Assembly (NCBI GenBank): GCA_963840455.1
Contig: CAWIYV010000007.1
Span: 394,456-458,455, forward strand
Source: Nitrospirota bacterium
Lineage (GTDB): Bacteria > Nitrospirota > UBA9217
DNA: 64,000 nt
Direction: 5' to 3'
Shown here: positions 4,640 to 29,485 of the stretch, piece after piece
Numbering within the stretch: the stretch's first letter is position 1
Layout of the letters: the number at the start of each line of letters is the position of its first letter
The notes under the pieces: generated by a model
Seen by the model: the letters and a program-made list of their open reading frames with translations, nothing else
The model's database searches: none
What the model was told of the DNA's origin: nothing
Translations under genes and position numbers: made by a program

Positions 4640-4652
4640 GACAAGGATACCC

Positions 4653-7709: not shown

Positions 7710-7795
7710 AAGTATATGATATAATCATGCATTCGACAACCTCCAGTGTTACATGATGATATTGGCTTTTGTTTCTATATGGTGGGTAGATACTA

Positions 7796-8617
7796 ATGTT
7801 AAAACTCGGCCACATAATCTATTCGAACTGCTTCCCCGTCCATGCCGGGATCCTGACCGGGAAGGTCGCCTGCCCTTTTCCGATCGTGGAAGGCATACCG
7901 ACCGAACTGAACCGGGCCCTCGTCGAGGGCAAGATCGATGTTTCGCCATCGTCGTCGATCGAGTACGCCACTTACCCGGGCAAGTACCGCATCCTGTCCG
8001 GCTTGTCGATCACTTCCCGAAACAAGGTCATGAGCATCCTGCTCGAGAGCCGGCTACCCCTGGACGAGTTGAACAATAAGACCGTTGCCCTGACCACGGC
8101 ATCGGCCACCTCGGTCGTCCTGCTCAGGGTGATCCTCGAGCTCTTTACCGGAGTGAACCCCGACTTCATGCTGTACGAGCAGGGAGTAGAGGATCCTTAC
8201 GACCGGGCGGACGCGGTCCTGACCATCGGCGACCTCGCCCTTAAGCGTTCCGTCAGGCCCCGTTTCCCTCATGCCTATGACCTCGGCGAGCTCTGGTACC
8301 AGCAGACCGGTCTGCCCTTCGTGTTCGCGCTGTGGCAGGTGAACTACCGGAAAGCGATCGAGCAGGACCTGGCACGGCTTGCCGATATTCTCACGGAGTC
8401 AAAACAGTACGGTATGTCCAGCCTGCGCGAGCTGGCGAACGGGCACGCTGCGGGCTTCGGGATCTCAGCGGATATGCTTTTTCAGTACTGGAACTGCTTC
8501 AGCTACGACTTCGGTCCCGAAGAGCAGAAGGGGCTCCTGACCTACTACGGGTACGCAGCGGAACTGGGGGCCATCGATGCCGTGCCGGAGCTCCGGATAT
8601 GGAGGAAGGGAGCATGA
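7796..8617 (+). CDS. MqnA/MqnD-family menaquinone (futalosine-pathway) biosynthesis protein, likely chorismate dehydratase
   Basis: GHIxYxNCxP N-terminus and IDVSPSSSIEYA block typical of the VitK2_biosynth family. ~273 aa. Confidence 0.6.
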   Translation: MLKLGHIIYSNCFPVHAGILTGKVACPFPIVEGIPTELNRALVEGKIDVSPSSSIEYATYPGKYRILSGLSITSRNKVMSILLESRLPLDELNNKTVALTTASATSVVLLRVILELFTGVNPDFMLYEQGVEDPYDRADAVLTIGDLALKRSVRPRFPHAYDLGELWYQQTGLPFVFALWQVNYRKAIEQDLARLADILTESKQYGMSSLRELANGHAAGFGISADMLFQYWNCFSYDFGPEEQKGLLTYYGYAAELGAIDAVPELRIWRKGA

Positions 8618-9603
8618 CGGCACCGTTGCGGCAGATGGATCACCACGGCCATGACCACGGGAATGCTCATGAACATGATCATGCCGGGGGCCATGTCGCC
8701 CACGCGGGTGCGGGCGGAAGGAAAGGGCTTCTGATCGCCCTCAGCATCACCCTGTTCATGATGCTCGCCGAGATCGTCGGCGGCATCATGTCCAACAGCC
8801 TTGCGCTCTTGTCCGATGCAGGCCACATGTTCACCGACACCCTGGCGCTCGCCCTGTCGTTCTTCGCCATGAAATTTGCGGACATGCCGGCGACGGAGAA
8901 GAAGACCTATGGCTTCTACCGCCTCGAGATCCTCGCGGCGCTCCTGAACGGCGTGATCCTCGTGCTCATTTCCCTCTACATCATCTACGAGGCATACCAG
9001 CGCATCCTGAACCCGCCTGCCGTGCAGGGGGCGCTGATGCTGATCGTGGCCGTAATCGGCCTGATCGTCAACATCATCGGCGCCCTGTTCCTGGTGAAAC
9101 ACCGTCATTCTACACTCAACATCCGGAGCGCGTTCCTGCACATCATCGGCGACGCGGTATCATCCGTCGGCGTCATCATCGGCGGCGTGGTGATCTATTA
9201 CACCGGCTGGTTCCTCATTGACCCGGTGCTGAGCATCATGATCGCTCTCGGTATCATTGCCGGCTCCTACGGCTTGGTGACAGAATCGGTGAACATCCTG
9301 CTCGAGTCCGCACCGTCCCATATCAACATCGAAGCTGTGGCTGCTGAGATCGCCACGGTGAACGGCGTTCGCGAGGCATACCACGTCCACATTTGGACCA
9401 TAACCTCGGGCGTCTATGCCCTGAGCGCCCACGTCATCATTGATGACATGCCGGTGAGCGGCAGCAGGGAACTGTTGAAGGATATCCAGCACCGTCTCGC
9501 GGAGCGCTTCAAGATCATCCACAGCACCATCCAGTTCGAATGCGAACGGTGCGTCGAGAGCGGGGTCTGTCCGCTCCCTGATGATGTGAAAAACCACCGG
9601 TAA
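8614..9603 (+). CDS. Cation diffusion facilitator (CzcD/ZitB-like) metal efflux protein with a His-rich N-terminus
   Basis: Start ATG overlaps the upstream TGA (ATGA), preceded by GGAGGAAGGG. HHGHDHGNAHEHDHAGGH N-terminal tail, six TM, LSDAGHM and HxxxD motifs. The longer track ORF from 8332 is an in-frame artefact overlapping the upstream gene. Confidence 0.85.
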   Translation: MTAPLRQMDHHGHDHGNAHEHDHAGGHVAHAGAGGRKGLLIALSITLFMMLAEIVGGIMSNSLALLSDAGHMFTDTLALALSFFAMKFADMPATEKKTYGFYRLEILAALLNGVILVLISLYIIYEAYQRILNPPAVQGALMLIVAVIGLIVNIIGALFLVKHRHSTLNIRSAFLHIIGDAVSSVGVIIGGVVIYYTGWFLIDPVLSIMIALGIIAGSYGLVTESVNILLESAPSHINIEAVAAEIATVNGVREAYHVHIWTITSGVYALSAHVIIDDMPVSGSRELLKDIQHRLAERFKIIHSTIQFECERCVESGVCPLPDDVKNHR

Positions 9604-14606: not shown

Positions 14607-14664
14607 GACCTCTTATACAATACCTCCCCGCTAATTGCAAGAGCATCTATGTTATACTCGAACT

Positions 14665-15987
14665 ATGCATAAGAGCGCCCGATCAGCCCTGCTCGTTCTT
14701 GCGGTCCTGCTGCCGTCTATCAGTGCATTTGACGATGGCCATGCAGCGGAAAAGCTCTCCCTGACGCAATGCCTCGAAACGGCGCTCAAGAACCAGCCGG
14801 CGATCAGGGCGGCCCAGGAGAACGTTCGTGCCGGTCAAGGCCGGGAGACCCAGGCGGCATCGCCCTATTTCCCGCAGCTCACGGCAAGTACCGGTTATTC
14901 CGAGAGCCATGCCCCCCTGGGAGGTGCGTTCGGAGACAGTACAACGAAGAGCTATACCACGAGCCTGTCGTTGAGCCAGACGCTCTATGACTTCGGGAAA
15001 ACCGGAAATGCCTATGACGCAGCGAAATTGGGTACGCTGTCGCTGGAGCGGGATGCGGAACGGATCAGCCAGGAGGTCGTGCTGAATGTCAAACAGTCCT
15101 ATTACGCGCTGCTGGCGGCCAAGAAGCTCGTCGAGGTAGCCCAGAAAACGATCGAGCAGACCGAAAGCCATCTGAAACAGGCCGAGGCGTTCTTTCGCGC
15201 GGGATCAAAACCGAGATACGACGTGACGCGGGCCGAGGTGGAAGTGAACAACGCGAATCTCGGCCTGATCAACGCAAAGAACGGTGTGCGCATAAGGACG
15301 ATCGCCCTGAACAACGCCATGGGGATCGATCCGGGGAGGGCCACGGAGATCGTGGAGGAGCTTCCCTCCGTCCCGCTTCTTCCGTCGCTGGACAAGGCGC
15401 AGGCGGACGCCCTTCAGAACCGTCCGGACATGAAACGGATGGAGGCTGACATCGAGGCGGCCCGGGCCCGGCTGACGGCGGAGCGGTCGAACCACCTTCC
15501 GACGCTCTCGGCGAACGCCGCCTACAACTGGGCGAACGGCACTACCGAGATGGGACCGTTCATGGGGACGATGTTCAAGGGAGACGTCCAGAACAGCTGG
15601 AACGCCGGGATCATGCTGACCCTGCCCCTGTTCCAGGGAGGCCTGACGGCGGGCCGGGTCGCCGAGGCGCGGGCGAATCTGCTTGCGCTTGAAGCCCAGC
15701 GGGACGCGATGAAGCAGTCGATCCTCCTGGAGGTGAACCAGGCCTTTGCCGATCTCGAGAGCGCGGCCGCGCGGGTGGAGGTCATGGAGAAGACCCTGCA
15801 AAAAGCGCGGGAAAATCTTGATATCGCCCAGGGCAGATATAAAGCAGGGGTCGGTCCCTATATTGAAGTGACAGACGCCCAGCTTTCCTCGGTCAATTCA
15901 GAAACAGACCATATCAAGGCGCTGTATGATTATCACCTTGCGATCGCGCAGCTCCAGAAAGCAATGGGCATCAAAAGCTATGAATAA
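14665..15987 (+). CDS. TolC-family outer membrane efflux protein
   Basis: Start taken at MHKSARSALLVLAVLLPSISA (signal peptide). Two OEP repeats. Confidence 0.8.
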   Translation: MHKSARSALLVLAVLLPSISAFDDGHAAEKLSLTQCLETALKNQPAIRAAQENVRAGQGRETQAASPYFPQLTASTGYSESHAPLGGAFGDSTTKSYTTSLSLSQTLYDFGKTGNAYDAAKLGTLSLERDAERISQEVVLNVKQSYYALLAAKKLVEVAQKTIEQTESHLKQAEAFFRAGSKPRYDVTRAEVEVNNANLGLINAKNGVRIRTIALNNAMGIDPGRATEIVEELPSVPLLPSLDKAQADALQNRPDMKRMEADIEAARARLTAERSNHLPTLSANAAYNWANGTTEMGPFMGTMFKGDVQNSWNAGIMLTLPLFQGGLTAGRVAEARANLLALEAQRDAMKQSILLEVNQAFADLESAAARVEVMEKTLQKARENLDIAQGRYKAGVGPYIEVTDAQLSSVNSETDHIKALYDYHLAIAQLQKAMGIKSYE

Positions 15988-16033
15988 CACGAGGCCGTAG
16001 AAGGTCGTTGACGGAGAGAGGGGAGGAAAAGCA

Positions 16034-16492
16034 ATGCCGCGAGTAGAATCAGTGTTCAGGGTCAAACTCCCTGTCAGGGCAGTGTGGTCCTTTATGTCGG
16101 ACCGCAACGAAGTGGGCTGTCTGTTCCCGGGATGCAAGGGTGTCAAGATCTTAGATGATCTGGACGCGATATGGAAGGTGCGCGTGACCTTCGGGCCCTT
16201 TGCCCGGCTCGTGGAGCTGAAGACCCACACGACGGCGTTCAAGGAGTTTGAGCAGCTTTCCTGGATCGGCAGCGGCGGAGACATCCACATGTCAGGTGAC
16301 GTCATGCTGAAAAAGGTCTCGGACGACGAGACCGAGGTGGTCTATCATCTGGAAGGGCATGTGACCGGGCCGTTCGCCATGCTGCAGGACATTGTGGTGG
16401 CGGAGAAGCTGCGGGAGGTGAAGAAGAAGTTCATCAAGAACATCAAGGACGAGCTCGAGTGGCAGCTGGATGAGGGCGTGGAAAAGAAATGA
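16034..16492 (+). CDS. SRPBCC (CoxG/polyketide-cyclase-like) small ligand-binding protein
   Basis: 152 aa, VWSFMSD...KFIKN pattern typical of CoxG-like SRPBCC. Confidence 0.5.
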   Translation: MPRVESVFRVKLPVRAVWSFMSDRNEVGCLFPGCKGVKILDDLDAIWKVRVTFGPFARLVELKTHTTAFKEFEQLSWIGSGGDIHMSGDVMLKKVSDDETEVVYHLEGHVTGPFAMLQDIVVAEKLREVKKKFIKNIKDELEWQLDEGVEKK

Positions 16493-17592
16493 CGCTGCTC
16501 AGGAACAAGAAGGTGCTGATGGCTGCCGCGGTGGTGATCGTCATTGTGCTCGCCGTCGTAATGACCGGCAAGAAACCGGTGCCGGTCAAGGTCATTGAGA
16601 TCAAGCGGGGAGAATTGCGCGTCATCGTGAATGCGACGACCACGTCGACGGTAAAGTCGGAATACGAGGTCACGCTTTCCGCGCAGCGCACGGGAAGGGT
16701 CGTCACGCTGCCGGTGCGGGAAGGGGACCGGGTCAAGGCCGGAGACCTGATCGCACGGCTTGATCTGACCGAAGAATCCGTCCAGTCCGAGAGCGTTCTG
16801 GCCCAGAGCAGGGCAACATACGGGGAAACGGAGAAGAACCTCAAGCGCTCGGAAGATCTTTTTGCGAACGGGATGATCGCCCAGCAGGACCTCGACAGCG
16901 CACGCAGAGCGTTCGAGGTGGCACGGTCCCAGTATGAAGCCTCCCGGGACGATGTCAAGGTCAAGAAGGACTATTCCGTCATCAGGACGCCCTATGGCGG
17001 TGTGGTGTCGAAGAAATACACGGAGGTAGGCGAGCTGCTCCTGCCCGGGAAGCAGATCGTGACCGTCGTGGACCCTGACCGTATCTATGTGCTGGCGACC
17101 ATCGATGAGGTGGATGTGGGACGGCTTCGTCTGGGGCAGCCGGTGGCCATCAGCATTGACGCGTTCCCGGGCGAGAAGTTCAACGGCACCATCAGGCGGA
17201 TATCGCCCATCGTAAGCGGCGGAAAGCTGGAGACCCGGACCGCGGACGTGTGGATCTATTTCACGGCGAAGGACGCCAGGATCAAGCCGGGGATGTCCGC
17301 CGACGTCGAGATCCTCATCACGACGCTCACGGGGGTCCTGTCCGCTCCATCACAGGCCATCGTGGAGCGCGACGGCAAGAAGCAGGTCTATGTCGCTGAA
17401 GGAACGAACCTTGCCCCGGGTGCCACTACCCGTGTGCGTCTGCAGCCTGTGGAGATCGGCGAAAGCAACTGGGTGAGTACGGAGATCAGGAACGGCCTGA
17501 AGGCCGGGGAGTTCGTTGTTACCACGCCCGAAGTGGAAGGACTGAAGGATGGCGTCAGAATCGTCGTCGAGAAAGAGAAAAATTCCCGTTAG
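16489..17592 (+). CDS. Efflux periplasmic adaptor (HlyD/MacA-type membrane fusion protein)
   Basis: N-terminal TM anchor, biotinyl-lipoyl-like hairpin, coiled coil, beta-barrel domains. ATGA overlap with the upstream gene. Confidence 0.8.
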   Translation: MTLLRNKKVLMAAAVVIVIVLAVVMTGKKPVPVKVIEIKRGELRVIVNATTTSTVKSEYEVTLSAQRTGRVVTLPVREGDRVKAGDLIARLDLTEESVQSESVLAQSRATYGETEKNLKRSEDLFANGMIAQQDLDSARRAFEVARSQYEASRDDVKVKKDYSVIRTPYGGVVSKKYTEVGELLLPGKQIVTVVDPDRIYVLATIDEVDVGRLRLGQPVAISIDAFPGEKFNGTIRRISPIVSGGKLETRTADVWIYFTAKDARIKPGMSADVEILITTLTGVLSAPSQAIVERDGKKQVYVAEGTNLAPGATTRVRLQPVEIGESNWVSTEIRNGLKAGEFVVTTPEVEGLKDGVRIVVEKEKNSR

Positions 17593-17604
17593 CATACCCC
17601 TGCC

Positions 17605-18278
<674 letters not shown>

Positions 18279-18282
<4 letters not shown>

Positions 18283-19487
18283 ACTTCATCGAGATATTCA
18301 GGGTCGCGCTGGAGGCCATCCTTTCGAACAAGGTGCGGTCCGGCTTAACCATGCTTGGCGTGATCATCGGGGTGCTCGCGGTGATCTTGCTGGTCTCGAT
18401 CGGCGAAGGGGCACAGGTCTACATCACCAAGGAACTCACGGGCATGGGAACGAACCTCCTCATGATCACACCGGGGAAAACGAGCACGAGCGGCGGCTTC
18501 CATCCTCCCTCAGCAGGAACAGTGCGCAAACTGACCTATGATGATTCGCAGGCGCTCAAGCGCCGCGCCTGGCTCCTGAGCGATGCAGTACCGCTTGTGT
18601 TCGGCACCGGACGGATAAAATACCAGAACATGGGCCGCGACACCATGATCATCGGAACAACGCCGGAGTTCCAGAGCATCCGGCACCTCTTCGTCGACAC
18701 CGGCAGCTATGTGACCCAGGGGGATGTGGATTCCAAGGCGAAGATCGTGGTGCTCGGCACGAAGGTGAAGGAGGAGCTGTTCGGCCAGGAGAATGCGCTC
18801 GGCAAGGCCGTGACACTTTCCGACGCCCGCTACCGCGTCGTCGGGGTGATGCAAAAGCGGGGGACGAGCCTTGGCATGGACCTCGATGATATCGTGTTCA
18901 TACCCGTCACGAGCGGACAGGAGCTGTTCGACACCGATGGGCTGTTCGAGATCATCGCCTCGACACCCCGGGCAGAGGACGTGGACCGGGCCATCAGCCA
19001 GATCAAGGAGGTCCTGATTAAACGGCACGCGCACAAGGAGGATTTCACCATCCAGACCCAGGGTGCCATGCTCTCGACCATGAATACCATTTTGAACATC
19101 CTGACCGCGGTGCTCGGGGGCATTGCCGGAATCTCGCTGCTCGTGGGCGGGATCGGGATCATGAACATCATGCTGGTCTCTGTCCGCGAACGCACGCGGG
19201 AGATCGGCATCAGGAAGGCCATCGGTGCCCGGAACAGCGATATCATGGCTCAGTTCATGATCGAGGCGATCACGCTGTCCGGCGTCGGCGGGGTCATTGG
19301 CATCGTGCTCGGTGTGGGCATCGCGCTCCTGATCCCGATGTTCGTCACGGTGCTCCCGACGAGCATATCGCTCTGGTCCATTGTGATGGCCTTCACCTTC
19401 TCCATGGCGGTCGGTGTGTTCTTTGGCGTGTACCCGGCCCGCAAGGCATCGCTTCAGGACCCTATCTCCGCACTACGCTACGAATAG
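18279..19487 (+). CDS. ABC transporter permease, FtsX/MacB-like
   Basis: Start ATG overlaps the upstream TGA. N-terminal TM, large periplasmic domain, three C-terminal TM (FtsX fold). The longer track ORF from 18222 is an artefact. Confidence 0.85.
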
Positions 19488-19561
19488 GTGGAAAATTGTA
19501 CGCATATTTGGTATAGTTACTGGCAAGGAAACGATATAATTCGGACGGCAGGAGGGTATTC

Positions 19562-20068
19562 TTGATGGAAAAGCGAAGTGGCGTCTTTCTGGTGAAAACT
19601 GACTGGTGGTATATCGAACGACTTGTGTGGCTCATTGCCGGGACTGATGTGGTCTTGAGCTCGATCCTGACCGCGGTCCATAGCCCCAACTGGGCGTTCT
19701 CAATCCTCTTCGTCGGTGTCTGCTCCATAACCGTGGCGCTCACCGGTTTCTGCATTGTCGGAAATGCTCTCTACTTCCTCGGCGTGAGGCCGCTGGTGCC
19801 TGACAAAAGGACCTATGACAAGGGAAAATGGAACGGTCTGTATTTTATGGAGAACAATGAGTGGTTCCTGGAGCGGTACATCTACGTGTTCGTCGGCGTG
19901 AACCTGTCCATCAGTTCGATGCTGGCGCGCTTTGTCAGCCCCTATTGGCTCTATTTCACCGGCTTTGTCGGCACCGCCACCATCCTCTTCGCCTTCACCG
20001 GCTTCTGCATCATGGCGAACTTCCTGTACCGCCTGGGTCTCGAGCCCCGGATGTGCCGGAACATCTGA
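19562..20068 (+). CDS. Tandem DUF2892 (YgaP-like) membrane protein
   Basis: Two repeats of the W...GxxxLxxxxTGFCxxxNxLYxLG pattern. Confidence 0.55.
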   Translation: MMEKRSGVFLVKTDWWYIERLVWLIAGTDVVLSSILTAVHSPNWAFSILFVGVCSITVALTGFCIVGNALYFLGVRPLVPDKRTYDKGKWNGLYFMENNEWFLERYIYVFVGVNLSISSMLARFVSPYWLYFTGFVGTATILFAFTGFCIMANFLYRLGLEPRMCRNI

Positions 20069-20154
20069 ATGGTCGTGCAAGACTGTCGGAGGCATAGCAC
20101 CTGCTTTGTCCGGCCATGCGCTCGTTCGATGGGTCAGTAGTCGGATTCCGCTCG

Positions 20155-20613
20155 CTAGAACTTACCCGCGTGCCGCTCGAGCGTCGATCGCGCAATACGA
20201 TAATCATCTCCTTCCTGCGTTCCCTCGATCCTGATCGGGAAACAGCCCCCGATGCCCTTCTCCAGCTTGTACACCGAATAGGTCGTATCACAGGCCCTGC
20301 ATACGACGTAACCATCTTTAGACTCGTATCCAAGCTTCCGGGGATAGCAGGTGAGACAGGCGTCCAGGAAGGAGAGGACCACGTCCTTCATCCGGATCAC
20401 GAAGAAGTTGACATCTTTGCCTTTTGTTCGAAAGGAGTAGAACTGCGGCGTCTCAAGCGGGAGCGATGCCGTATGGATCACGACATTTTCGCCTTCGATC
20501 GGAGGCGCGGCATAGCGCGGCTGGCGGGAACAGGCCGCAAGTGAAGCGAAGGCTCCGACCAGGCACGAGGTCGCCAATAGATATTTGATGAAGGCAAGGC
20601 GAAAATGTCTCAT
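20155..20613 (-). CDS. Cys4 (CxxC-x15-CxxC) zinc-ribbon/rubredoxin-like lipoprotein, DUF2318/FtrD-like
   Basis: Start at MRHFRLAF. Lipobox LAACS. CLTC...CRAC metal-binding knuckles. Confidence 0.45.
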   Translation of the reverse strand: MRHFRLAFIKYLLATSCLVGAFASLAACSRQPRYAAPPIEGENVVIHTASLPLETPQFYSFRTKGKDVNFFVIRMKDVVLSFLDACLTCYPRKLGYESKDGYVVCRACDTTYSVYKLEKGIGGCFPIRIEGTQEGDDYRIARSTLERHAGKF

Positions 20614-20724
20614 TGTGAACTCTTTTCCCAGGCGCACGGCAGGTACGGATACAGGGCCGCGAGGACATCTGCAGCGGCATACCGCCCCGGGCAGATGCAG
20701 AGCATCCGCCCGGGGTTGAACGCC

Positions 20725-21246
20725 TTAATGCTTGTGCTCCATGGACTGCGTTTTTTTCATCTTTCTCTTTTCCCGGATCATCTTTGTGTCCTCATACATG
20801 TCCGTGTAGGCTGACTTGATGACGTCGTCGAACGATGACAACGTGCCGCCGTTCGTTTTGATGAAGGCCTCGGCATCGTCCTTTTTCTCGAACGCCCATT
20901 TTCCACGCTTGGTCATCACGCCGGCCTTTGTGCCGCCGACAACCCAGAAGGCTTTCTCCGCATCGATGAGGGCTTTGGTCCCGAAATCCCCGACCTTGAT
21001 CGCTGTCGGCGTTTTGTCGATGTTCATCGCCAGTTCGACTGCAGCGCAGTGGAGGCTGCAAACGCCCGTTGACGTACCATCGTCATACTCGATCAGCATC
21101 CGGGTAAAATCGAACTTCTGCCGGTCCATGCCGCAGTACTTGCAACTCGGCGACTGCTTGACGTCGTCCTGCGCGACCGCCGTCATCGCCAACATCCCGA
21201 ACACCACTGCCAATGCCAACGCCGCTGCTACGTTCTTCCTGTTCAT
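20725..21246 (-). CDS. NosL-family copper-binding protein (paralog 1)
   Basis: Start at MNRKNVAAAL (signal peptide). CKYCGMD motif and the overall NosL pattern (FD..G...CS..CA). Confidence 0.65.
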   Translation of the reverse strand: MNRKNVAAALALAVVFGMLAMTAVAQDDVKQSPSCKYCGMDRQKFDFTRMLIEYDDGTSTGVCSLHCAAVELAMNIDKTPTAIKVGDFGTKALIDAEKAFWVVGGTKAGVMTKRGKWAFEKKDDAEAFIKTNGGTLSSFDDVIKSAYTDMYEDTKMIREKRKMKKTQSMEHKH

Positions 21247-21331
21247 ATGCCCCTCCTTGAATGAGAAATGGTGCTGCAAGCCGGATCTCCCGTATCAGAG
21301 AAGATTAGTATCCTGATTGATACCTGTCCAA

Positions 21332-21805
21332 CTACCGGACCTCCCGGGCGAGATCCTCCCGCGCCGCTGCAAGCGCCTCGTTCCAGGTGATGATCGCCCC
21401 GTCGTAGCGCTCGATGAACGCCTCTGCCGAGGCCCGGGTCGCAAAAGCCCACTTGGGCCGGTCCGTCATGACACCCCGCTTCGCGCCTCCCATGACCCAT
21501 GCCGCTTTCTCCGCATCGATCAATGTCCGGTCATTACGGTCGGCCGCGAGGATGGCCTTCACCGTCCGTCCCGCATTCGAGTCGAGCTCAACCACAGCGC
21601 AGCGCAGGCTGCAGACGCCGACGGAGATCCCGTCCTCATATTGTACCAGCATTCTGCTGAATCCGTAGGCCTTCCGGTCCATGCCGCAGTGGACGCAGGA
21701 ACGGTATTCCGATATATCATCGCCAGCGGGGACAGCCGCTCCCGCCAAGATGACCAGCAGTGATGCACAAAAGAGGACGACGCAAACTCTCAGGTTCATG
21801 ATCAT
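21332..21805 (-). CDS. NosL-family copper-binding protein (paralog 2)
   Basis: Start at MIMNLRV (signal peptide). CVHCGMD motif. About 45% identical to paralog 1 by eye. Confidence 0.65.
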   Translation of the reverse strand: MIMNLRVCVVLFCASLLVILAGAAVPAGDDISEYRSCVHCGMDRKAYGFSRMLVQYEDGISVGVCSLRCAVVELDSNAGRTVKAILAADRNDRTLIDAEKAAWVMGGAKRGVMTDRPKWAFATRASAEAFIERYDGAIITWNEALAAAREDLAREVR

Positions 21806-21833
21806 GTACTCCTCAAAGGGGCGATGGCTCCGA

Positions 21834-22391
21834 TCACGGCAGACCGGCCAGGACATTATGTAACCGCACCCCGTCCTTATAATCTTCGTTCATGCGAACG
21901 ATTCCCGCACTATCCACGACGACGGTGATCCCCATTGTGCCATGATAGAGGTTCTCGACCGTATCTTGCGTATCCGCAAGAATCGTCAATGCTGTGCCAC
22001 TGAAACCGTAATTGGTCGCAGATTGCTGTACCTGTGTAATCGTGTCGCTAACATAATCCACCGCATAGAACCGCACATTCGGAAATGCGGGTATCTGGAC
22101 ATTCACTATATTGTCCATGTGGTCCCAACATATAGGGCACCACATGGTGAAGTAAAATACCACTCCCTGCAAGCCGGTGGTCGTGAGGACAGAGGAAAGA
22201 GTGACATCATTTCCGAACATATCTGGAATGGTGAAATCCGGAGCTAGTTGGCCGGGTAAGGGTCCAATCGTGCCCGGCGTTACGGGGGGCTGCTTGTCGC
22301 TCCCGGATGGAAAGAGATCGTCCGTAATGCCGCCGCATCCGGCGAGCATGACAAGGATCATGATGAGGATGCTGTTCTTAACGGAACCCAT
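21834..22391 (-). CDS. Thioredoxin-fold (redoxin/TlpA-like) lipoprotein with a CPIC active site
   Basis: Lipobox LAGCGG. WCPICW CxxC motif. Confidence 0.65.
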   Translation of the reverse strand: MGSVKNSILIMILVMLAGCGGITDDLFPSGSDKQPPVTPGTIGPLPGQLAPDFTIPDMFGNDVTLSSVLTTTGLQGVVFYFTMWCPICWDHMDNIVNVQIPAFPNVRFYAVDYVSDTITQVQQSATNYGFSGTALTILADTQDTVENLYHGTMGITVVVDSAGIVRMNEDYKDGVRLHNVLAGLP

Positions 22392-23364
22392 AGCTCACTC
22401 CCAGGGTATAGATATCGGTGGTCGGGAAGTTATCGCCCCAGCCGTCCTGCCGGACCGCGTGGATCCAGGAGACCCTCGTGCTCCAATCATGGTCGGTGCT
22501 TGAATAGGCGAGTGCAGCGCCGATCGACTCCTTCCGAAATCCGCTCGATGGGTCCTTGGCGTCGTTGTAGGTCCCGTCCGCCTCCCGCAGATAGGAAAAG
22601 GACCCCGTGCCTGTCAGTTTGTCCCCGCCGGTGCCGATGTAGTACGTGTAGCCGAGGGAAAGGGATGCGGATGTGCGGTCTCCCAAAGTCTTATGGTAAG
22701 GATCCACATATCTGCCGTATTCACGATTGACCGATCTCTCAATGTACGTTCCATAGCTCAGCGACAGGGATGCGTTCCAGGGATTCACTGTTTTTGCGAC
22801 AACGATATTGCCATCGAGACGGTAGAAGCCTCGTCCGGTAATATCGTAGCTGCTCGTCACATCATCATAGGGGGAAATGCCTGTCGGAACCAGCAAGCCC
22901 ATGCCGATCGTGACCGACGGGATCATATCCTTCATGCTTCGGATCTTCCAGGCAGACTTGTCGTCGACAGCTTCATACCAGACATTTAGCGTCGTGTCGC
23001 CGATCCCATTAGACCGAGAGGTACTTCTTGGATAACCATTGTAATTCCAAACATAGGGAACGGTAATGCTTGTCTGCCAGCGTGAAGCAAGGCGCTGGGC
23101 TAATCCGAGGTTTAGGCGATATTGCCAAAGATGATAATTTGGTTGGCTAAAATATTGTCCCTTGTTATTCCAGAGCCCATTGTATTTTTCCACATCTACG
23201 GACAGATCGATCATGCCCCGATAGTAACTGGGCAGCAGCAAGGCTGTTCCTCCACCTCCGCCGCAACAGGAGCCTGCCCAGGTGGAAAGGGGAGAAAGGA
23301 GCGCGGCCCCCGTGAAGAGGGCCGCGATCAGGATATAAAATGCCCGTGCACTTGGCATCAGCAT
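22378..23364 (-). CDS. Small outer-membrane beta-barrel protein with an N-terminal GSCCGGGGG motif
   Basis: Signal peptide, alternating-hydrophobic amphipathic strands rich in Y/G/W, ends SYGFR. A CC pair follows the signal peptide directly. Confidence 0.5.
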   Translation of the reverse strand: MLMPSARAFYILIAALFTGAALLSPLSTWAGSCCGGGGGTALLLPSYYRGMIDLSVDVEKYNGLWNNKGQYFSQPNYHLWQYRLNLGLAQRLASRWQTSITVPYVWNYNGYPRSTSRSNGIGDTTLNVWYEAVDDKSAWKIRSMKDMIPSVTIGMGLLVPTGISPYDDVTSSYDITGRGFYRLDGNIVVAKTVNPWNASLSLSYGTYIERSVNREYGRYVDPYHKTLGDRTSASLSLGYTYYIGTGGDKLTGTGSFSYLREADGTYNDAKDPSSGFRKESIGAALAYSSTDHDWSTRVSWIHAVRQDGWGDNFPTTDIYTLGVSYGFR

Positions 23365-23366
23365 GC

Positions 23367-24977
23367 CTACTGGGGAGTGACGACGAAGGACGTATATGCG
23401 TTGGCACCGGAGGCTGCTGCGCCATCCGTGGTCTTGTCCTGTCCGTTCACTTGCAACTTGATGTAGATCGTGGCCGTCTGGCCAGATACAAGACCGCCGA
23501 GCCCGTTCAGGGACCAGTGGCCGTTGCCTGCGTCCGTTCCGATGACCGGCGATGTAAATGACGTATCCGTTGCGGCCGATACGGCCATGGACGTCACCGT
23601 TCCCGTCGGACTGCTCAGCACTGAGCCGACCGACGCGGGATTGAAGTTCATCATCATGTTCTCGGCGTGGGAGATCATAAAGTTCAAGGTTTCGCTGGAC
23701 GCATTGACCGACCCGTCCCGGAACAGGATGTATCGTGTATACTGCGTGCCGCTCGGCCCGCTGACGATATCGGCCGGTCCGTATAACCGCTGAACGATCG
23801 TATCGGTGCCCATCGCCATGCCGACAGAGGGATAGAATGTCGCTGATTCGGCTCCCATCCCCATGCCGATCATGACCTTCATTTCCCAGATCCCCATGTT
23901 CAGACCCGAAGCCATAAGATAATAGGCCGTGCAGTCATAGGTGCCGGGAGTGCCGGATTCGGTGGCAGCATCGACCGGTGTGCCGTGGTTCTTCGTGGAC
24001 ATATGCATCATCGGCATGAGCTTGACCGTCAGGCCCGTTGCGGGCAAGCCGTCGCTCCGGTTCGTGATCCTGATCTTGAACATTGTTTTGCCTATCGTGG
24101 GCCCCATCATTCCCAGAGGAACATATTCGACCCGGTAGGTCGGTGTCAGCGAGACCTTTGAAAATGATAGATTGCCGACCTGGTCAACGGTCAGACCGGT
24201 CAAATTGCGGGTGGTGTTCGATAGACAGGTCACCAAAGCACATTCGAATTTATTCATAATATCCTCGGGAACGCTTCCCGTGCCGAGCGATACTGGCATT
24301 GATACGTTCTTGCCATCGAGAATCCCGTCAGCAAGATCCTGAGCAAGTGCTTCAAGCAGGTCGAACTGGTCGATCGGGCTGAGGCCAAGGTCCTTGGTCA
24401 ATTGGCTGAACGCCATGGCCCGAAGGCCCGCGAGGCGCTGCGCCGTGCTGGATGCAGCGGAATAAGGCGCATTGCAGGGCGCGATGGATGCGTCGGGGGC
24501 GAAGCCGAAGGCCGAAGCGAACAGAGCAGATGCATCAGCATTCGTCCTGCCGTGGATGCGCATGAGATCGGCGATGATCGTTGATGAGGGATCGAGGTTC
24601 ACGGAGGCATTTGAACCCATGCTTCCCGCCGACATATATGCCGCGAGGGAACTGGCCGTCGTCGTTGCGCCCGTCGCTTCGTCAACGAACGTTCCGCCGC
24701 TTGAACGGAAGAGAATCGTTCCCGTGAGGAAGCTGGACGGAATGCCAATGCTGTACCTGCCGTCCACGGCCGTGGTGACCGGTCCGGCTATGGTGGTGGT
24801 GCCTGTCGAGTTCAGGACAACAACAGTTGCCCCGGATACCGGGGCCGCGTAGACTGAACCGCTGACAGTCGTGTCTGTTGACGGCGCCGCATTGTTTGAA
24901 GAACCGCCGCACCCCGCAAGCAGGGCCAGAAACGCAGCAAGAACCAAAGCTAATCCTTTGTTCCGTTGTGTCTGCAT
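23367..24977 (-). CDS. Large secreted lipoprotein with clustered Met motifs (MPMMHM, MxGMGMG, VGMAMG); candidate Cu(I)-binding protein
   Basis: Lipobox LAGCGG, Ser/Thr/Gly-rich linker, then a Met-dense C-terminal half. Confidence 0.5.
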   Translation of the reverse strand: MQTQRNKGLALVLAAFLALLAGCGGSSNNAAPSTDTTVSGSVYAAPVSGATVVVLNSTGTTTIAGPVTTAVDGRYSIGIPSSFLTGTILFRSSGGTFVDEATGATTTASSLAAYMSAGSMGSNASVNLDPSSTIIADLMRIHGRTNADASALFASAFGFAPDASIAPCNAPYSAASSTAQRLAGLRAMAFSQLTKDLGLSPIDQFDLLEALAQDLADGILDGKNVSMPVSLGTGSVPEDIMNKFECALVTCLSNTTRNLTGLTVDQVGNLSFSKVSLTPTYRVEYVPLGMMGPTIGKTMFKIRITNRSDGLPATGLTVKLMPMMHMSTKNHGTPVDAATESGTPGTYDCTAYYLMASGLNMGIWEMKVMIGMGMGAESATFYPSVGMAMGTDTIVQRLYGPADIVSGPSGTQYTRYILFRDGSVNASSETLNFMISHAENMMMNFNPASVGSVLSSPTGTVTSMAVSAATDTSFTSPVIGTDAGNGHWSLNGLGGLVSGQTATIYIKLQVNGQDKTTDGAAASGANAYTSFVVTPQ

Positions 24978-25006
24978 GATTGTGACCTCTCCATGTTCAT
25001 GAATAG

Positions 25007-25504
25007 TTATAGTCGCGATAAGAGATCAATGATCTCTTGTTCATAAACCGGTACGAATACCCCGCTGAATCCCTGGTGCACGTATCGGATGATGCTGTCA
25101 CGGCCGATAAGATAGAGCGCCGGCAGACCGGAAAAGCGGTAGGCTTCCGCCGTATCGCCCCGCGTGTCCAGGACCACGGGAAAGCCGACAGGCCGCTTTT
25201 TCAGAAATGCCGCTAACCGTTCGGCGGTAGCGTCAACTGCTATTCCGATGACGATGAATCCCTTATCCCGATATATTCGATAGAGCCGATCCAGCTCGGG
25301 AAACTCCTCTCTACACGAAAGACACCAGGGGGCCCAGAAAGCGAGCAGGATAACGTTTCCGTTCAGACTTTCGAGTGAGACCGAACTTCCGTTCACATCA
25401 GCAAGCTGAAAAGCAGGCGCTCTATCCCCGGCCTGGACCGCGTTCACAGTGGCAGGTGTCAGGACAAGCAAAAGGGCTATGAAGATGTTAATGTTCACGT
25501 TCAC
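25007..25504 (-). CDS. TlpA-like periplasmic thiol:disulfide oxidoreductase
   Basis: Signal peptide. WAPWCLSC CxxC motif in a thioredoxin fold. Confidence 0.75.
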   Translation of the reverse strand: MNVNINIFIALLLVLTPATVNAVQAGDRAPAFQLADVNGSSVSLESLNGNVILLAFWAPWCLSCREEFPELDRLYRIYRDKGFIVIGIAVDATAERLAAFLKKRPVGFPVVLDTRGDTAEAYRFSGLPALYLIGRDSIIRYVHQGFSGVFVPVYEQEIIDLLSRL

Positions 25505-25694
25505 TCTGAAAGAAATGGCTCCGCCTCAGAAATATCTTGAGCAGCAGGGATGATGCCGGATACTTCCGAAGCGGAGCCGGGCGAAAGGGGGAGAAACGCC
25601 CATAGGTGTGAGCCGGCTTGCAGGACGGCGCACAAACGCAACCGGATCGCGGTGCGCATTTCGACACGCTTACGGAAATACTGGAAACGAGGGG

Positions 25695-25982
25695 TTACGA
25701 CCTGGGGGGATGTTCGCTGCTACTGGTGAGGATCAGTTCAGTGAAGACCGGATGGACCGGTTCGGTGAAAGATACGGAAAGGGTGGGAGGTGCAGTGCAG
25801 GGTGCCAGACCGACGCAGGGCATCTCGCCGTTCGAAGAAAGGGCCGGTGCGGCAGAGTGGCAGACGTCGAGAGTGCCCAGGAACGAGCGTCCGTCATTCA
25901 CGGCCATGAACGACAACGATGTCACCGGAGCGAGGACCGTGAACGCGAGGACGATCAGCAGGATGAATGTTACCGACTTCAT
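25695..25982 (-). CDS. Small secreted Cys/His-containing protein (95 aa), hypothetical
   Basis: Strong signal peptide MKSVTFILLIVLAFTVLAPVTSLS. DVCHS...MPCVGLAPC. No clear RBS, so low confidence. Confidence 0.35.
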   Translation of the reverse strand: MKSVTFILLIVLAFTVLAPVTSLSFMAVNDGRSFLGTLDVCHSAAPALSSNGEMPCVGLAPCTAPPTLSVSFTEPVHPVFTELILTSSSEHPPRS

Positions 25983-26362
25983 AGTTGAAGTATAGAAATA
26001 AAATATCGTCCTGTCAACGTAAAGTTTTAATTATTGTTGGTTTGATGTGTGCCATATCGCGTTCATGGTAAGCTCTTTTGCGGGTTTTTATAACTGGAAT
26101 GCCGCAAAATAGTGCACGAAGTTCAGCAGGAGGGTGTGAAACATCTGTCATGTGTATTTGCTCAATAGCCTGACGAGGTTCTATGATTCCGGATCTTGCG
26201 CTTCGACGCTGAGTGCATCCGGGTAGGCAGCAATGTTCGAAGCGAACTTAACGGGGAATCAACACTGGATTTTTGAACGCTAACGGTAATGAGCACGATG
26301 AAACTCACGGTAATTACTGAATTCTTTATTGACACCTCCCGGCAAATACGGTAATTTTAACC

Positions 26363-26941
26363 ATGACGGGCATCATTCTTGCCGGTGGAGAAAGCCGGCG
26401 CATGGGCACGGACAAGGCCCTGCTCGATATCAACGGCAGGCCCATGATCGAACATGTTCTTGCAGTATTTGCAGGTCTGTTCAAGAAGACCATCATTGTC
26501 ACGAACACGCCGGACCGATACCGGATGTACGGCGTCGAGCTGACCAGTGATGTCCTTGACATCCGTGGTCCACTGACCGGCATCTATTCGGGGCTGCTCA
26601 GATCGCATGATGAGTATAATTTCGTCGCAGCCTGCGACATGCCCTTTCTGAACCCCCGGCTCATAGCGTACATGGGAGAGCTGGCTGCGGGACATGATGC
26701 CGTGGTCCCGATGTTCGGCGGCGGTTTTCTCGAGCCGCTCCACGCGATCTACCGCAAGGGTATCTTCCCGGTCATCGAGATGCAGGTCCGGAAGCAGGAC
26801 CGCAGGATCCGGGGTATGTTCGATCATATTCAGGTCAGGTATGTAACAGAAGAAGAGATCGTCCGGTTCGACCCGCTGAAAAAGTCATTCAGGAATTTAA
26901 ATACACCGAAGGAGTACAAGGAGGCAGTATGTTTGGATTAG
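26363..26941 (+). CDS. mobA: Molybdenum cofactor guanylyltransferase MobA
   Basis: [20 protein letters not shown]-terminal nucleotidyl-transferase motif. Confidence 0.85.
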
Positions 26942-27111
26942 GAATGCCGGAGCTGTTGGTCATTCTGGTCATTGTCATTATCATCTTTGGGGCCAGCCGT
27001 CTCCCGCAGCTGGGCGAAGGGCTCGGCAAGGCCATTAAAGGCTTTAAGAAGGGGATCGCGGACAGCAACGAGGCGAACAAGGACTCGTCCAAGCCTGAAA
27101 ATAAGTCATAA
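26929..27111 (+). CDS. tatA: Twin-arginine translocase subunit TatA/E
   Basis: [26 protein letters not shown], amphipathic helix, 60 aa. Confidence 0.85.
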
Positions 27112-27133
27112 CCGGGAACGCGGGGCGTCGGCG

Positions 27134-28888
27134 ATGAAATGGGTACTCGCAGAACATGATGCGGGGGCCGTTTCGCGGCTCTCGGACCAGGCCGGCATCC
27201 ACCCGCTCATCGCACGGCTCATGGTCGCCCGGGGGATCACCGACGCCGCCGCTGCGCTTGTCTTCCTTTCCCGTGACCTTTCCTCGCTCTCCGATCCACG
27301 GGCCCTCCGCGGCATGGACAGGGCCGTCGGCCGCATCCGTCAGGCGATCTCTTCAGGCGAACCCATAACCGTTTACGGTGATTACGATGTTGACGGCGTG
27401 ACCGGCGCCGCGCTGCTTTTCCTCGCGCTGCGGGAGCTGGGCGCCAGGGTCGATAGCTACATTCCGGACAGGATGACCGAAGGGTACGGCCTGAACGCAG
27501 AGGCTCTGGGCCGCATCAAGGCCTCCGGCGCGGCACTTGTCATCACCGTCGATTGCGGTATCAGCGCCGTCAATCAGGCTGCCGCTGCCCGAGCACTGGG
27601 CCTCGACCTCATCATCACCGACCACCATGAATCGGCAGCGGTCCACTGGGAGGGGCCGTCACCTGCCCCGGGTGTTCTGCCGGAGGCGTTTGCGGTCATC
27701 CATCCAGGGCTGGTCCAACCGGGAACTTCCGATGCCGTACGGGATAGCATCGGCGGTCTCACGGGTGTGGGCGTCGCCTTCAAACTGGCACAGGCGCTCG
27801 CGGACCTGCCTGCCGGCGATGAACGCATGATGCAGTATCTCGACCTGGTGACCCTGGGGACCATTGCCGACATCGGCAGGCTCACGGGAGAAAACCGGGT
27901 CCTCGTGGGGCATGGGCTGGATATCCTCTCGTCGGAGCCGCCGCGCCTCCGGCCCGGCATCGCAGCGTTGAAGCAGGTCGCGAACCTGAGCGGCAAGAAG
28001 GTGAGCGTCGGGACCGTGGGCTTCACCCTGGCGCCGAGGATCAACGCCAGCGGAAGGCTCGAGCGCGCCGACACCGCCTTCCGGCTCATGACCACGGGTT
28101 CGCCCGACGAGGCTCTGCACCTGGCGACCATGCTGGACCGGGTCAACCGTGAGCGACAGGCGGTCGAAGAGGCCATCTGGGGGTCGGCCCGCGAGCTCTG
28201 CCTCCAGGCGGACATGGCGAACACCGGCGCCTTCATCCTGTCGTCCGATGAATGGCACCCCGGCGTGATCGGGATCGTGGCGTCGAGGATCGTCGAGGAG
28301 TTCTACCGTCCCACGGCGCTCATCTCGGTTAAGGACGGCGTGGGGAAGGGGTCTGCGCGGAGCATTCCGGGCTTCGACCTGTACCAGGGGCTGTCAGCCT
28401 GCTCTGACCTGCTCCTCGGGTTCGGCGGGCATAAGTACGCCGCCGGCCTTACGGTGGCCGTGGACCAGATCCAGCCCCTCAGGGAGCGGCTGAGCGCGGC
28501 AGTGCTCGAACTGTTCGGCCCCAACGGGTTCGTGAGGACCCTGTCCATCGATTCACCGGTCACTTTTGACGACCTGACTTTCGACCTGCTGCGCGACATC
28601 GAGCGGATGGCGCCCTTCGGCCAGGGCAATCCCGAACCGCGGTTCGGAGCCAAGGGCCTCGAGGTCCTGTCTCTCCGTCCGGTGAAGGACAACAAGCACC
28701 TGAAGCTCCGGCTCCGCCAGCAGAACAACCTGCAGTTCGATGCCATCGCTTTCAACAAGGGTGAGTCGCTCGGAAGCCGGCTCCGGACCGGGACGCAGGT
28801 CGCCGCAGTGTTCACGCCGCGGATCAACACTTGGAACGGTATCACGAACATACAGCTGGAGATCAGGGACATCAAGGTAGAAAAATGA
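27134..28888 (+). CDS. recJ: Single-stranded-DNA-specific exonuclease RecJ
   Basis: DHH motifs (VYGDYDVDG, DHH at ITDHH), DHHA1 domain. Start at MKWVLAEH; the upstream in-frame extension in the track is an artefact. Confidence 0.85.
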   Translation: MKWVLAEHDAGAVSRLSDQAGIHPLIARLMVARGITDAAAALVFLSRDLSSLSDPRALRGMDRAVGRIRQAISSGEPITVYGDYDVDGVTGAALLFLALRELGARVDSYIPDRMTEGYGLNAEALGRIKASGAALVITVDCGISAVNQAAAARALGLDLIITDHHESAAVHWEGPSPAPGVLPEAFAVIHPGLVQPGTSDAVRDSIGGLTGVGVAFKLAQALADLPAGDERMMQYLDLVTLGTIADIGRLTGENRVLVGHGLDILSSEPPRLRPGIAALKQVANLSGKKVSVGTVGFTLAPRINASGRLERADTAFRLMTTGSPDEALHLATMLDRVNRERQAVEEAIWGSARELCLQADMANTGAFILSSDEWHPGVIGIVASRIVEEFYRPTALISVKDGVGKGSARSIPGFDLYQGLSACSDLLLGFGGHKYAAGLTVAVDQIQPLRERLSAAVLELFGPNGFVRTLSIDSPVTFDDLTFDLLRDIERMAPFGQGNPEPRFGAKGLEVLSLRPVKDNKHLKLRLRQQNNLQFDAIAFNKGESLGSRLRTGTQVAAVFTPRINTWNGITNIQLEIRDIKVEK

Positions 28889-29485
28889 ACGTACAGATAA
28901 TTATTATAGGATCTTCTCCCTCTTATGTGGGTAACATTGTCCGCTACCTAATAAGAATCGTGTTTTCTGCATATCCCCTTCGCATCCTGAATGAATTTCC
29001 TGACCCGTCTACGGCCACGTCCGCTCGCCCGCGCAAACTCGGCCTGCGGCCTCAGACATGCGCGTTCGCCCTGCGGGACGCTTCCTTAGGCCAAGACGGG
29101 TGCCCAGAAAATTCATAGGGACGCTCCGGGGACATGCGGGATTTGGGTATAGGCCTGTGCATCTGCCTTTCCAAAAGCTCCTGCATCCCGTGAACAGGTC
29201 CGTGCACAAGCATGCGCAGGCGGTCACGGCAGGTGCCATCACCAAGCCAGGCAGACACGGCTGAGCCCGTTTTGACGGGCGAGGGGAAGTGCTGCTTTAC
29301 CCAATGAATATTGTTATCAGTACCAGTCCTGCATGCCTGCGCGGACCTGTGAACCGGGGTGCAGAAAAAATGGCATCGTGAATTTTATCTTTTTTGACGA
29401 CTGTAAATAGTTGCATGCTGCACAATTGCTTTGGAAATGAGTTTTTTGATATAGTGCATGATCGTTCGTGCTTGCATATAAATCT

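Follow-up and report, generated by a model that had tools for sequence, protein, structure and literature searches.

The 64,000-nucleotide (nt) stretch of DNA analysed here (the window) comes from a Nitrospirota bacterium (contig CAWIYV010000007.1, positions 394,456 to 458,455). At 23367..24977 on its minus strand lies an open reading frame (ORF) with an ATG start that encodes a lipoprotein of 536 amino acids (aa), the target protein, within a cassette that also encodes an outer membrane (OM) β-barrel candidate and two redoxins. An original prediction, made from the sequence alone, had read clustered methionines in the target protein as the mark of a candidate new Cu(I)-binding family that could not be placed among known ones. 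We compared the protein, its predicted structure and its gene neighbourhood with those of its homologues; all conclusions are computational.

Domain organization of the lipoprotein

The gene and its parts are:

23367..24977, minus strand: Met-rich YtkA-like lipoprotein, long form, 536 aa
24909..24977, minus strand: signal peptide and lipobox, residues 1-23; Cys23 is kept in 48 of 49 homologues
24594..24875, minus strand: N-terminal β-sandwich, residues ~35-128, CarboxypepD_reg-like; missing in short forms
24213..24590, minus strand: helical domain, residues ~130-255, with no assigned role; missing in short forms
23802..24164, minus strand: Met-rich YtkA-like β-sandwich, residues 272-392, with the signature L-M-P-x-M-H-M-x4-H ... 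GTYxC..YYLM ... MGYWEL ... VGMAMG
23370..23801, minus strand: C-terminal immunoglobulin (Ig)-like β-sandwich, residues 393-536, with a second conserved Met group (M441-443) and H487/W488

The ORF, its lipobox (LLAGC, residues 19-23) and four Met-rich strings (residues 320-334, 366-376, 384-392 and 441-447) lie exactly where they had been predicted. The Ser/Thr/Gly-rich linker described after the lipobox shrinks to residues ~24-34. In the AlphaFold2 model, built with a homologue alignment (mean predicted local distance difference test score, pLDDT, of 91; predicted template modelling score, pTM, of 0.86), pLDDT falls below 50 for residues 22-29, and residues 35-255 form a confidently predicted β-sandwich followed by the helical domain. 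The first β-sandwich (~35-128) has weak CarboxypepD_reg matches in 16 of 49 family members, and the last (~392-536) gives weak matches to Big_13, Invasin_D3 and Big_6 among the members. A Foldseek search of the PDB with the full-length model returned generic tandem-Ig and antigen-binding-fragment matches only, at a template modelling (TM) score of ~0.15, and is uninformative because the protein is multidomain.

At least 277 homologues of the target were found among 5.8 billion proteins searched; nearly all are unnamed "hypothetical proteins", and almost none carries a precomputed Pfam domain. The target itself has no match in NCBIfam, and its Pfam and NCBIfam scans matched no copper family. 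Sequence searches of the PDB with the full family profile and with the Met-rich domain gave nothing relevant, and a motif search of the target sequence found no PCuAC, CopC-loop, OprC-type or haem motif.

Conservation of methionine, histidine and tryptophan residues

The target contains 27 methionines (5.0 %), and 21 of these lie at or past residue 290. Compared with 5000 shuffles of its own sequence, both the densest 110-aa window (15 Met, p=0.001) and the number of M-x(0-2)-M motifs (10 against 3.6 expected, p=0.0006) exceed what composition yields. Two alignments extend this to the family: a close one of 49 members at 46-80 % identity and a divergent one of 48 short or divergent relatives. 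Over the 49 homologues, mean Met content is 7.5 % in the C-terminal part as opposed to 1.8 % in the N-terminal part. Since the C-terminal methionines are conserved and enriched and the N-terminal ones are not conserved, the Met clusters are selected and no compositional accident.

M324, M326, M355 and M441 are invariant in the close alignment, and M291, M361, M387, M389, M443, H331, C349, W364 and W488 are conserved to at least 90 %; H487 and M321 (44/49 each) fall slightly under that mark. In the divergent alignment, M326 and M355 are each kept in 47 of 48 sequences, their single exception in the two alignments. M324, H331 and W364 do not vary at all in either alignment, that is, over about 95 homologues. 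C349 is found in 35 of 48, and the remaining methionines are also less constant there. This pattern makes M324, M326, H331 and M355 candidate Cu(I) ligands, with W364 as a possible cap. Judging by the strand order of the model, the conserved Met, His and Trp residues would sit at the ends of two neighbouring hairpins and hence at the same pole of the sandwich.

Fold of the Met-rich domain

Modelled alone (residues 268-395), the Met-rich domain reaches a pLDDT of 90. Its top two Foldseek matches in the PDB are the apo (9LL2) and Ag-bound (9LL4) forms of Helicobacter pylori CrdA, with an E-value of 1.3e-4, TM scores of 0.65 by query and 0.76 by target, a root-mean-square deviation of 3.1 Å and 18 % identity. 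All other matches are to generic Ig domains; their E-values are at least ~40-fold weaker and almost all of their TM scores lie below 0.5. CrdA is periplasmic, rich in Met and CopC/PcoC-like, and its methionine cluster has been proposed to bind Cu(I) with sub-nanomolar affinity (PMC9182242). The domain thus has a CopC-type β-sandwich fold. Of the two folds suggested in the original prediction, CopC-like and cupredoxin-like, the former is recovered via CrdA and the latter is not: neither a cupredoxin nor an OB fold (oligonucleotide/oligosaccharide-binding) occurs among the 50 structural matches listed, and Cupredoxin_1 is matched by one of the 48 relatives, at E 0.04.

The likeness to CopC and PcoC is one of fold and does not extend to sequence profiles. 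Pfam CopC (PF04234) is matched by neither the target, the family members nor the divergent relatives. The MxxMPGM Cu(I) loop was not found in the target, where "MPMM" is the only approximation to it, and an N-terminal His Cu(II) site is impossible because the Met-rich domain is internal. A regular-expression search of the target for the PCuAC motif H(M)X10MX21HXM found none. A by-eye alignment of LMPMMHM...GTYDC to the CopC Met loop and GTYKVDW was dropped, with hhalign giving a probability of 2-3 %.

Relationship to YtkA-like proteins

Sequence comparison through intermediate relatives places the Met-rich domain, which the original prediction could not assign to a known family, as a divergent, Met-enriched member of the YtkA-like superfamily (PF13115). 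Weak YtkA-like matches occur in 21 of the 49 close members, always at residues ~294-358 (best E 2.5e-5), and YtkA is matched by 16 of the 48 short or divergent relatives (best E 2e-20). An exhaustive hidden Markov model search of 1.84 billion representatives with the domain only found 439 proteins at E<=1e-3 and 173 at E<=1e-10. The hits listed from this search are the close family only (E<=2.6e-14), and the bridge to YtkA comes from a Pfam scan of them. Among 146 new representatives, 68 have the long form of the target and 52 a short form of 250-345 aa that is devoid of the first two modules.

The assignment hinges on two relatives, P0252 and P0253, which the domain profile finds at E ~4e-16 library-wide and which score 73.7 and 56.8 bits, respectively, against Pfam YtkA. 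In both, a domain of the Met-rich type is followed by a canonical YtkA domain, and the target profile aligns to both domains in one register (independent E-values 9e-19 and 1e-6). Because these intermediates align in register, the domain can be placed in the superfamily. The His, the post-strand Met and the Trp superpose in the alignment of both domains, and H331 aligns with the GH of the canonical YtkA domain in P0252. As expected of a YtkA-type protein, the target is predicted to be an extracytoplasmic lipoprotein (LLAGC, Cys23 in 48/49), and a lipobox-like motif is present in 36 of 47 short forms. One further relative, P0264 (516 aa), contains nine tandem repeats of ~55 aa, each matching only the "GTYxC..YYLM" segment (profile positions 67-88).

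YtkA-like domains have a genetic link to copper. In Bacillus subtilis, the CuA centre of cytochrome caa3 depends on the lipoprotein CtaK (formerly YtkA); a His118Tyr mutant of CtaK behaves as a deletion, and the defect is suppressed by added copper (PMC9145763). The YtkA/CtaK domain is tied genetically to CuA assembly (PMC13344008, PMC9145763), as is the YtkA domain at the C-terminus of YcnJ; His and Met are conserved in these domains. What appears to be new is therefore the subfamily, the multidomain architecture and the cassette; the domain itself belongs to a known, barely studied, copper-linked superfamily.

Gene neighbourhood in the window

The target gene lies in a run of closely spaced genes on the minus strand, which in order of transcription comprises:

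25989..26017, minus strand: candidate operon promoter, sigma-70-like (TTGACA-17-TATACT, 11/12), directly upstream of the small ORF
25695..25982, minus strand: small protein of 95 aa; hydrophobic segment at the N-terminus, LDVCHSAxPALSSNGxMPC motif, E(H/R)PP(K/R) tail at the C-terminus
25007..25504, minus strand: TlpA/ResA-like periplasmic thiol-disulfide oxidoreductase (WCLSC; AhpC-TSA, E 6e-25)
23367..24977, minus strand: the target lipoprotein
22378..23364, minus strand: partner OM β-barrel candidate, 328 aa, COG4313/Phenol_MetA_deg/FapF-like
23254..23271, minus strand: invariant S-C-C-G-G-G motif of the barrel, residues 32-37, directly after the signal sequence
21834..22391, minus strand: redoxin lipoprotein (FTMWCPIC), with a conserved DDLxPSGxDKxP after the lipobox
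21332..21856, minus strand: NosL-family protein B (CVHCGMDR)
20725..21279, minus strand: NosL-family protein A (CKYCGMDR)
20155..20637, minus strand: FtrD-like (PF10080, formerly DUF2318) Cys-rich lipoprotein, the last operon gene

From the TlpA-like gene to the FtrD-like gene the intervals are 29, 2, -14, -23, 52 and 87 nt, so the genes are tightly packed and partly overlapping: the barrel gene starts 2 nt from the target gene and is itself overlapped by 14 nt by the redoxin lipoprotein gene. All operon products have signal or anchor sequences. The two neighbours named in the original prediction are borne out, the TlpA-like redoxin by its AhpC-TSA match and the barrel by family matches that are weak but consistent. 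The small 95-aa protein has no Pfam family. The promoter candidate is put forward on its position and match quality, as promoter-like hits in the region overall are not above chance. The end of its -10 element is 7 nt away from the ATG that follows, that of the small ORF (25982-26017, minus strand), a spacing that could mean a leaderless transcript or a true start codon further into the gene.

The rest of the window holds efflux and housekeeping genes. A MacAB-TolC-type tripartite ATP-binding cassette (ABC) exporter (OEP, HlyD-type membrane fusion protein, ABC ATPase and FtsX/MacB permease; 14635-19487, plus strand) converges on the cassette and is followed by a gene for a YgaP-like membrane protein at 19562-20068. 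We considered the MacAB-TolC-type genes as cassette partners and set them aside, since they are syntenic only within Nitrospirota. A TetR regulator, an OM efflux protein, an AcrB-type resistance-nodulation-division (RND) pump and a CDF cation-efflux protein at 2649-9603 (plus strand) make up a general efflux neighbourhood. A stretch of low GC content at ~46000-50200 (0.45-0.49 versus ~0.58 elsewhere), bounded by a DinB/IMS-family polymerase gene (44623-45936, minus strand) and a tRNA-Gly gene (50052-50127, minus strand), is maybe an integrated island.

The barrel partner

In every full-length barrel homologue, S-C-C-G-G-G opens the mature chain directly after an AxA-type cleavage site. S32, C33, C34, G35 and G36 are invariant in 20 barrel sequences, and the two motif cysteines are the only cysteines of the barrel protein in the window. 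Of the 49 loci, 41 contain SCCGG, and the window translated in all six frames shows it a single time. The motif could alternatively represent a lipobox plus a free Cys. Phenol_MetA_deg/COG4313 (PF13557) is matched by 6 of 20 barrel members (best E 1.9e-7), most members falling below its threshold, and further weak matches are to NfrA_C, OMP_b-brl and Autotransporter; the copy in the window matches only NfrA_C (E 8e-4). The nearest solved sequence to the barrel family profile is the 12-stranded channel FapF, at E 0.012.

The cassette in other genomes

We collected 38 target-family loci from species-representative genomes, all of them metagenome-assembled. The carriers are Nitrospirota (including Dissulfurispiraceae), Geobacteraceae, Desulfuromonadales, Desulfobulbaceae, Chromatiales and other Gamma- and Betaproteobacteria. 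The barrel gene follows the target gene in 33 of the 38 loci, and the other five are fragments or are cut at a contig end. A redoxin lipoprotein gene comes after them in 32. An FtrD-like protein is encoded in 13 loci, NosL in 20 and, by tblastn, a TlpA-like redoxin in 16, either upstream or downstream of the core. The short-form loci L046-L049 and the gammaproteobacterial loci have a smaller module, made up of lipoprotein, barrel and two redoxins among unrelated genes, and in L046 it lies beside transposases. In L039, the core is followed by three NosL genes, and a Sco1/SenC gene precedes the TlpA-like gene at a distance of ~1 kb (two small ORFs). The other genes that flank the cassette vary between loci.

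Conservation of the small upstream protein extends over 14 Nitrospirota loci, and its family (~95 aa) is represented in L001, L002, L003, L004, L006, L008, L010, L029, L031 and L033-L036. The Desulfobacterota loci L011, L012, L013 and L016 encode a different Cys-rich small protein with a proline-rich tail of the ...PPPK type, and L042 and L044 also encode different Cys-rich small proteins, with a PP-containing tail. In several Nitrospirota loci a C_GCAxxG_C_C "putative redox-active" protein is encoded a short way upstream of the cassette:

L003:7059-7871, C_GCAxxG_C_C protein
L033:6952-7806, C_GCAxxG_C_C protein
L034:6378-7271, C_GCAxxG_C_C protein
L039:4397-5194, C_GCAxxG_C_C protein

The closest relative is L031. 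Compared with 17600-28900 of the window, its flanking genes are 93-95 % identical, the small protein, NosL and FtrD-like proteins 72-82 %, the TlpA-like protein, barrel and redoxin 59-67 %, and the target 46 %. At this locus the place of the target is taken by a short form of 300 aa, which can be aligned to residues 280-535 only. With the lipoprotein at its centre, this V-shaped identity trough points to allelic replacement or to diversifying evolution. The lipoprotein is thus the most variable, exchangeable element of the cassette, and its Met-rich C-terminal half is the constant core.

A literature search found no paper that describes the cassette, and family members carry generic labels only; a search on DUF2318 together with NosL returned nothing on DUF2318. 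Three features appear to be undescribed: the subfamily with its Met enrichment, its architecture of four modules, and its strict pairing with redoxins and an SCCGGG barrel.

Divergent relatives and their OM partners

At L042:2143-5033, the gene for the P0252 lipoprotein lies directly upstream of one for a TonB-dependent receptor, with 24 nt between the two; this arrangement is found on 7 contigs. The receptor has plug and TonB_dep_Rec_b-barrel domains, and its only PDB matches are to Pseudomonas aeruginosa OprC (E 6.3e-13 over 557 residues), whose Cu(I) site is CxxxM-HxM (PMC7558416). Its GACTDKMDP aligns with GACPNRMDA of OprC (C118/M122 = C143/M147) and its HHRMDD with DHIMDN (H301/M303 = H323/M325), so all four OprC copper ligands are kept and the receptor is of OprC type.

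P0253 (L044) is preceded by a 346-aa putative barrel and a small Cys-motif protein of the L042 type. The putative OM barrel (L044:4889-5929) has a Met/His-rich N-terminus, an internal MPMDMHM and a C-terminal GVQYAF, and gave no Pfam or PDB match. Its comparison with the SCC barrel by hhalign was not significant and no kinship is claimed. A 757-aa protein of the same locus had no PDB match. The recurring unit thus combines an OM barrel, in one case a recognisable copper importer, with a small Cys protein and a YtkA-like lipoprotein rich in Met, and YtkA-like lipoproteins may be general accessory partners of OM copper importers.

Proposed function and alternatives

We favour, with moderate confidence and on comparative grounds, the reading that the target, a YtkA-like lipoprotein, binds Cu(I) and works with an OM copper conduit, probably for copper supply. 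The Cu(I)-binding proposal of the original prediction gains from the Met/His/Trp conservation, the CrdA fold, the YtkA homology, the presence of copper-maturation partners (NosL, TlpA-like and, once, Sco) and the OprC-type partner of a relative, and loses only the label of a new family as far as the Met-rich domain is concerned.

In the proposed mechanism the lipoprotein would consist of four folded modules, the third of which (~272-392) would be the functional core. Cu(I) would be held at one pole of its sandwich by M324, M326, H331 and M355, with W364 packed against the site, and copper may enter or be handed over at the second Met group (M387/M389 and M441-443). The partner would be a small OM barrel that carries two adjacent cysteines on a glycine-rich tether at its mature N-terminus. 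Two thioredoxin-fold reductases could keep these cysteines, and probably C349 too, reduced and metal-competent, while copper is presumably relayed between lipoprotein and barrel. In the Nitrospirota and Desulfobacterota versions the copper would pass on to NosL-type Cu(I) chaperones, which would load periplasmic or membrane cuproenzymes. The module would thereby provide anaerobes with a TonB-independent route of OM copper acquisition and supply, analogous to OprC/NosA. We favour supply over detoxification because the accessory genes are maturation factors, because the partner of the relative is an importer, and because neither a multicopper oxidase nor an exporter of copper across the inner membrane is linked to the cassette.

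Several observations weigh against this reading. Neither the gammaproteobacterial nor the stand-alone four-gene versions of the module include NosL. A copper regulator, pump or cuproenzyme is not consistently near the cassette in the loci examined, and none of the three is present in the window. The FtrD-like family is named after an iron-uptake system, and the OprC-type pairing belongs to a relative and not to the target protein. The target has no Pfam YtkA match at E<=1, and sampled members reach 13-16 bits on YtkA, short of the cut-off of 25.9 bits. That the proposed ligands cluster in space is read from strand topology only, and hhalign of the domain profile against the PcoC/CopC alignment gave the probability of 2-3 % quoted above. 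Our literature search found no biochemical Cu binding for any YtkA domain. The ORF, its conservation, the fold, the YtkA homology, the conserved cassette and the OprC-type partner of a relative are observed; from these we infer the metal identity, the ligand set, the order of hand-over, the direction of transport and the cellular location of the lipoprotein, which may be the periplasmic face or the cell surface.

A bolder form of the proposal, which we offer tentatively, is that of a fourth, TonB-independent OM copper route, in which a fast-evolving and possibly surface-exposed lipoprotein would capture Cu(I) and deliver it to the vicinal Cys pair of a small 12-strand-type barrel, the reductases would reset the thiols and NosL-type chaperones would carry the metal to cuproenzymes. 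YtkA-like lipoproteins would then be the accessory "substrate-binding" partners of OM copper transporters, OprC-type receptors among them.

The strongest competitor, which we nevertheless regard as unlikely, is copper/silver detoxification: the lipoprotein would sequester periplasmic Cu(I)/Ag(I), the barrel would export it through the OM and the redoxins would repair thiols damaged by copper, comparable to what has been proposed for CrdA with CrdB-CzcBA or PcoC with PcoB. CrdA, whose solved fold is the closest, is a determinant of copper resistance, and PcoB-type barrels are thought to export copper. A MacAB-TolC-type exporter lies nearby in Nitrospirota, RND and CDF efflux genes lie elsewhere in the window, and the transposases beside the module in L046 recall the setting of many resistance islands. 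Yet no P-type ATPase, Cus-type RND or multicopper oxidase is found in the cassette or consistently adjacent to it, and the MacAB genes are syntenic only among Nitrospirota. NosL, TlpA-like and Sco proteins are maturation or supply factors, and P0252 is paired with an OprC-type TonB-dependent receptor, such receptors being importers.

We consider it quite improbable that the substrate is another thiophilic one, for example Hg(II) or zero-valent sulfur/polysulfide, handled by the Cys pair and the reductases with the methionines secondary. Adjacent Cys-Cys pairs are typical of mercury transport proteins, the carriers are sulfur-cycling sediment organisms, and two or more thiol-disulfide oxidoreductases are encoded in the cassette. 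The conserved residues of the lipoprotein, however, are Met, His and Trp and speak of Cu(I)/Ag(I) chemistry, divergent members can do without Cys349 (kept in 35/48), and no mer, sox, dsr or psr genes were seen near the loci examined. Homology and fold also point to copper proteins, and NosL, Sco and the OprC-type partner are copper-specific.

An iron-uptake accessory of the P19/FtrABCD type, i.e., an Ig-fold periplasmic protein with copper only as a cofactor, is very doubtful. The operon does contain a PF10080 FtrD-like protein, and FtsX-type ABC and thioredoxin-fold genes lie nearby. In Campylobacter, cj1660-1665 are co-regulated with p19 under Fur; we take these genes to include FtsX-type ABC and thioredoxin-fold members, a domain content that the literature did not confirm. 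Against this, the window holds no Ftr1/EfeU permease, P19/EfeO or cupredoxin gene, the FtrD-like protein occurs in only 13 of the 38 loci, the ABC genes occur only in the Nitrospirota synteny, and the conserved site is devoid of acidic Fe ligands.

A non-metal role, as a structural or adhesive Ig-domain surface lipoprotein or a Met-rich oxidant sink, can hardly be upheld: three of the four modules are generic Ig-like or carboxypeptidase-regulatory-like, the full-length structural search gave only tandem Ig matches and the identity trough centred on the target gene resembles that of diversifying surface proteins, but specific Met/His/Trp positions are invariant or nearly so across phyla while other methionines drift, the specific matches are to CrdA and YtkA and not to adhesins, and the linkage to barrel and redoxins is strict.

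Should copper supply be the correct reading, the module would add to a short list, as passage of copper across the OM is known for few systems: porins, OprC/NosA and chalkophores. A review states that organisms without NosA must have other routes for metalation of N2O reductase. The analysis defines a compact four- to eight-gene module, marked by the invariant SCCGGG motif, in uncultured Nitrospirota, Desulfobacterota and Gammaproteobacteria of anoxic habitats. Such habitats are copper-scarce, so the module may bear on the copper limitation of N2O reduction and of other processes that depend on cuproenzymes. The YtkA domain, so far known from B. subtilis genetics only and without an established mechanism, gains a conserved candidate metal site, M-x-M-x4-H ... 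M ... W, and YtkA-like lipoproteins emerge as systematically paired with OM barrels, of which one class is clearly a copper importer.

Comparison with known systems

CrdA (9LL2, 9LL4), the best structural match, is likewise a periplasmic Met-rich β-sandwich and handles Cu(I)/Ag(I) via methionines. It is a free protein of ~14 kDa that works without His or Cys and with an RND pump, whereas the proposed site in the target includes a conserved His. The ligand chemistry of CusF, Met2-His with a tryptophan cap, is like that of the proposed target site. CusF has an OB fold, which is not among the structural matches of the domain. The likeness to CusF and Ctr1 drawn in the original prediction hence holds for ligand chemistry only, and that to CopC/PcoC for the fold only.

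With CtaK and the C-terminus of YcnJ the target shares a lipoprotein anchor, a small β-sandwich, the link to copper delivery and to TlpA/Sco-type partners and perhaps the conserved His and Met. It differs in that its domain is below the Pfam threshold, is strongly Met-enriched (MPxMHM and more) and is embedded in a four-module protein of 536 aa. The target occurs in diderm anaerobes with an OM barrel as partner and not beside genes for cytochrome oxidase or CopCD.

The partner barrel resembles the COG4313/Phenol_MetA_deg/FapF channels in size, in its signal peptide and in its weak, repeated profile matches; a description of its invariant SCCGGG N-terminus was not found in the literature. OprC and NosA offer a functional analogy, as they are OM barrels with Cys and Met/His copper ligands that serve the supply of periplasmic cuproenzymes. 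The ~325-aa partner barrel, in contrast, has neither plug nor TonB box; its thiols are on the N-terminal SCCGGG tether and it is accompanied by reductases.

Alike in logic are the pathways that mature CuA (TlpA-Sco-PCuAC) and CuZ (NosL), which combine a thiol reductase with Cu(I) chaperones in the periplasm. TlpA reduces the Cu-ligand cysteines of Sco and CoxB, and NosL is a Cu(I) chaperone (PMC6530538, PMC8457098). TlpA-like proteins, NosL and, once, Sco are encoded in the cassette. Compared with these pathways the cassette has no PCuAC motif and no target enzyme nearby; what it has in addition is an OM component.

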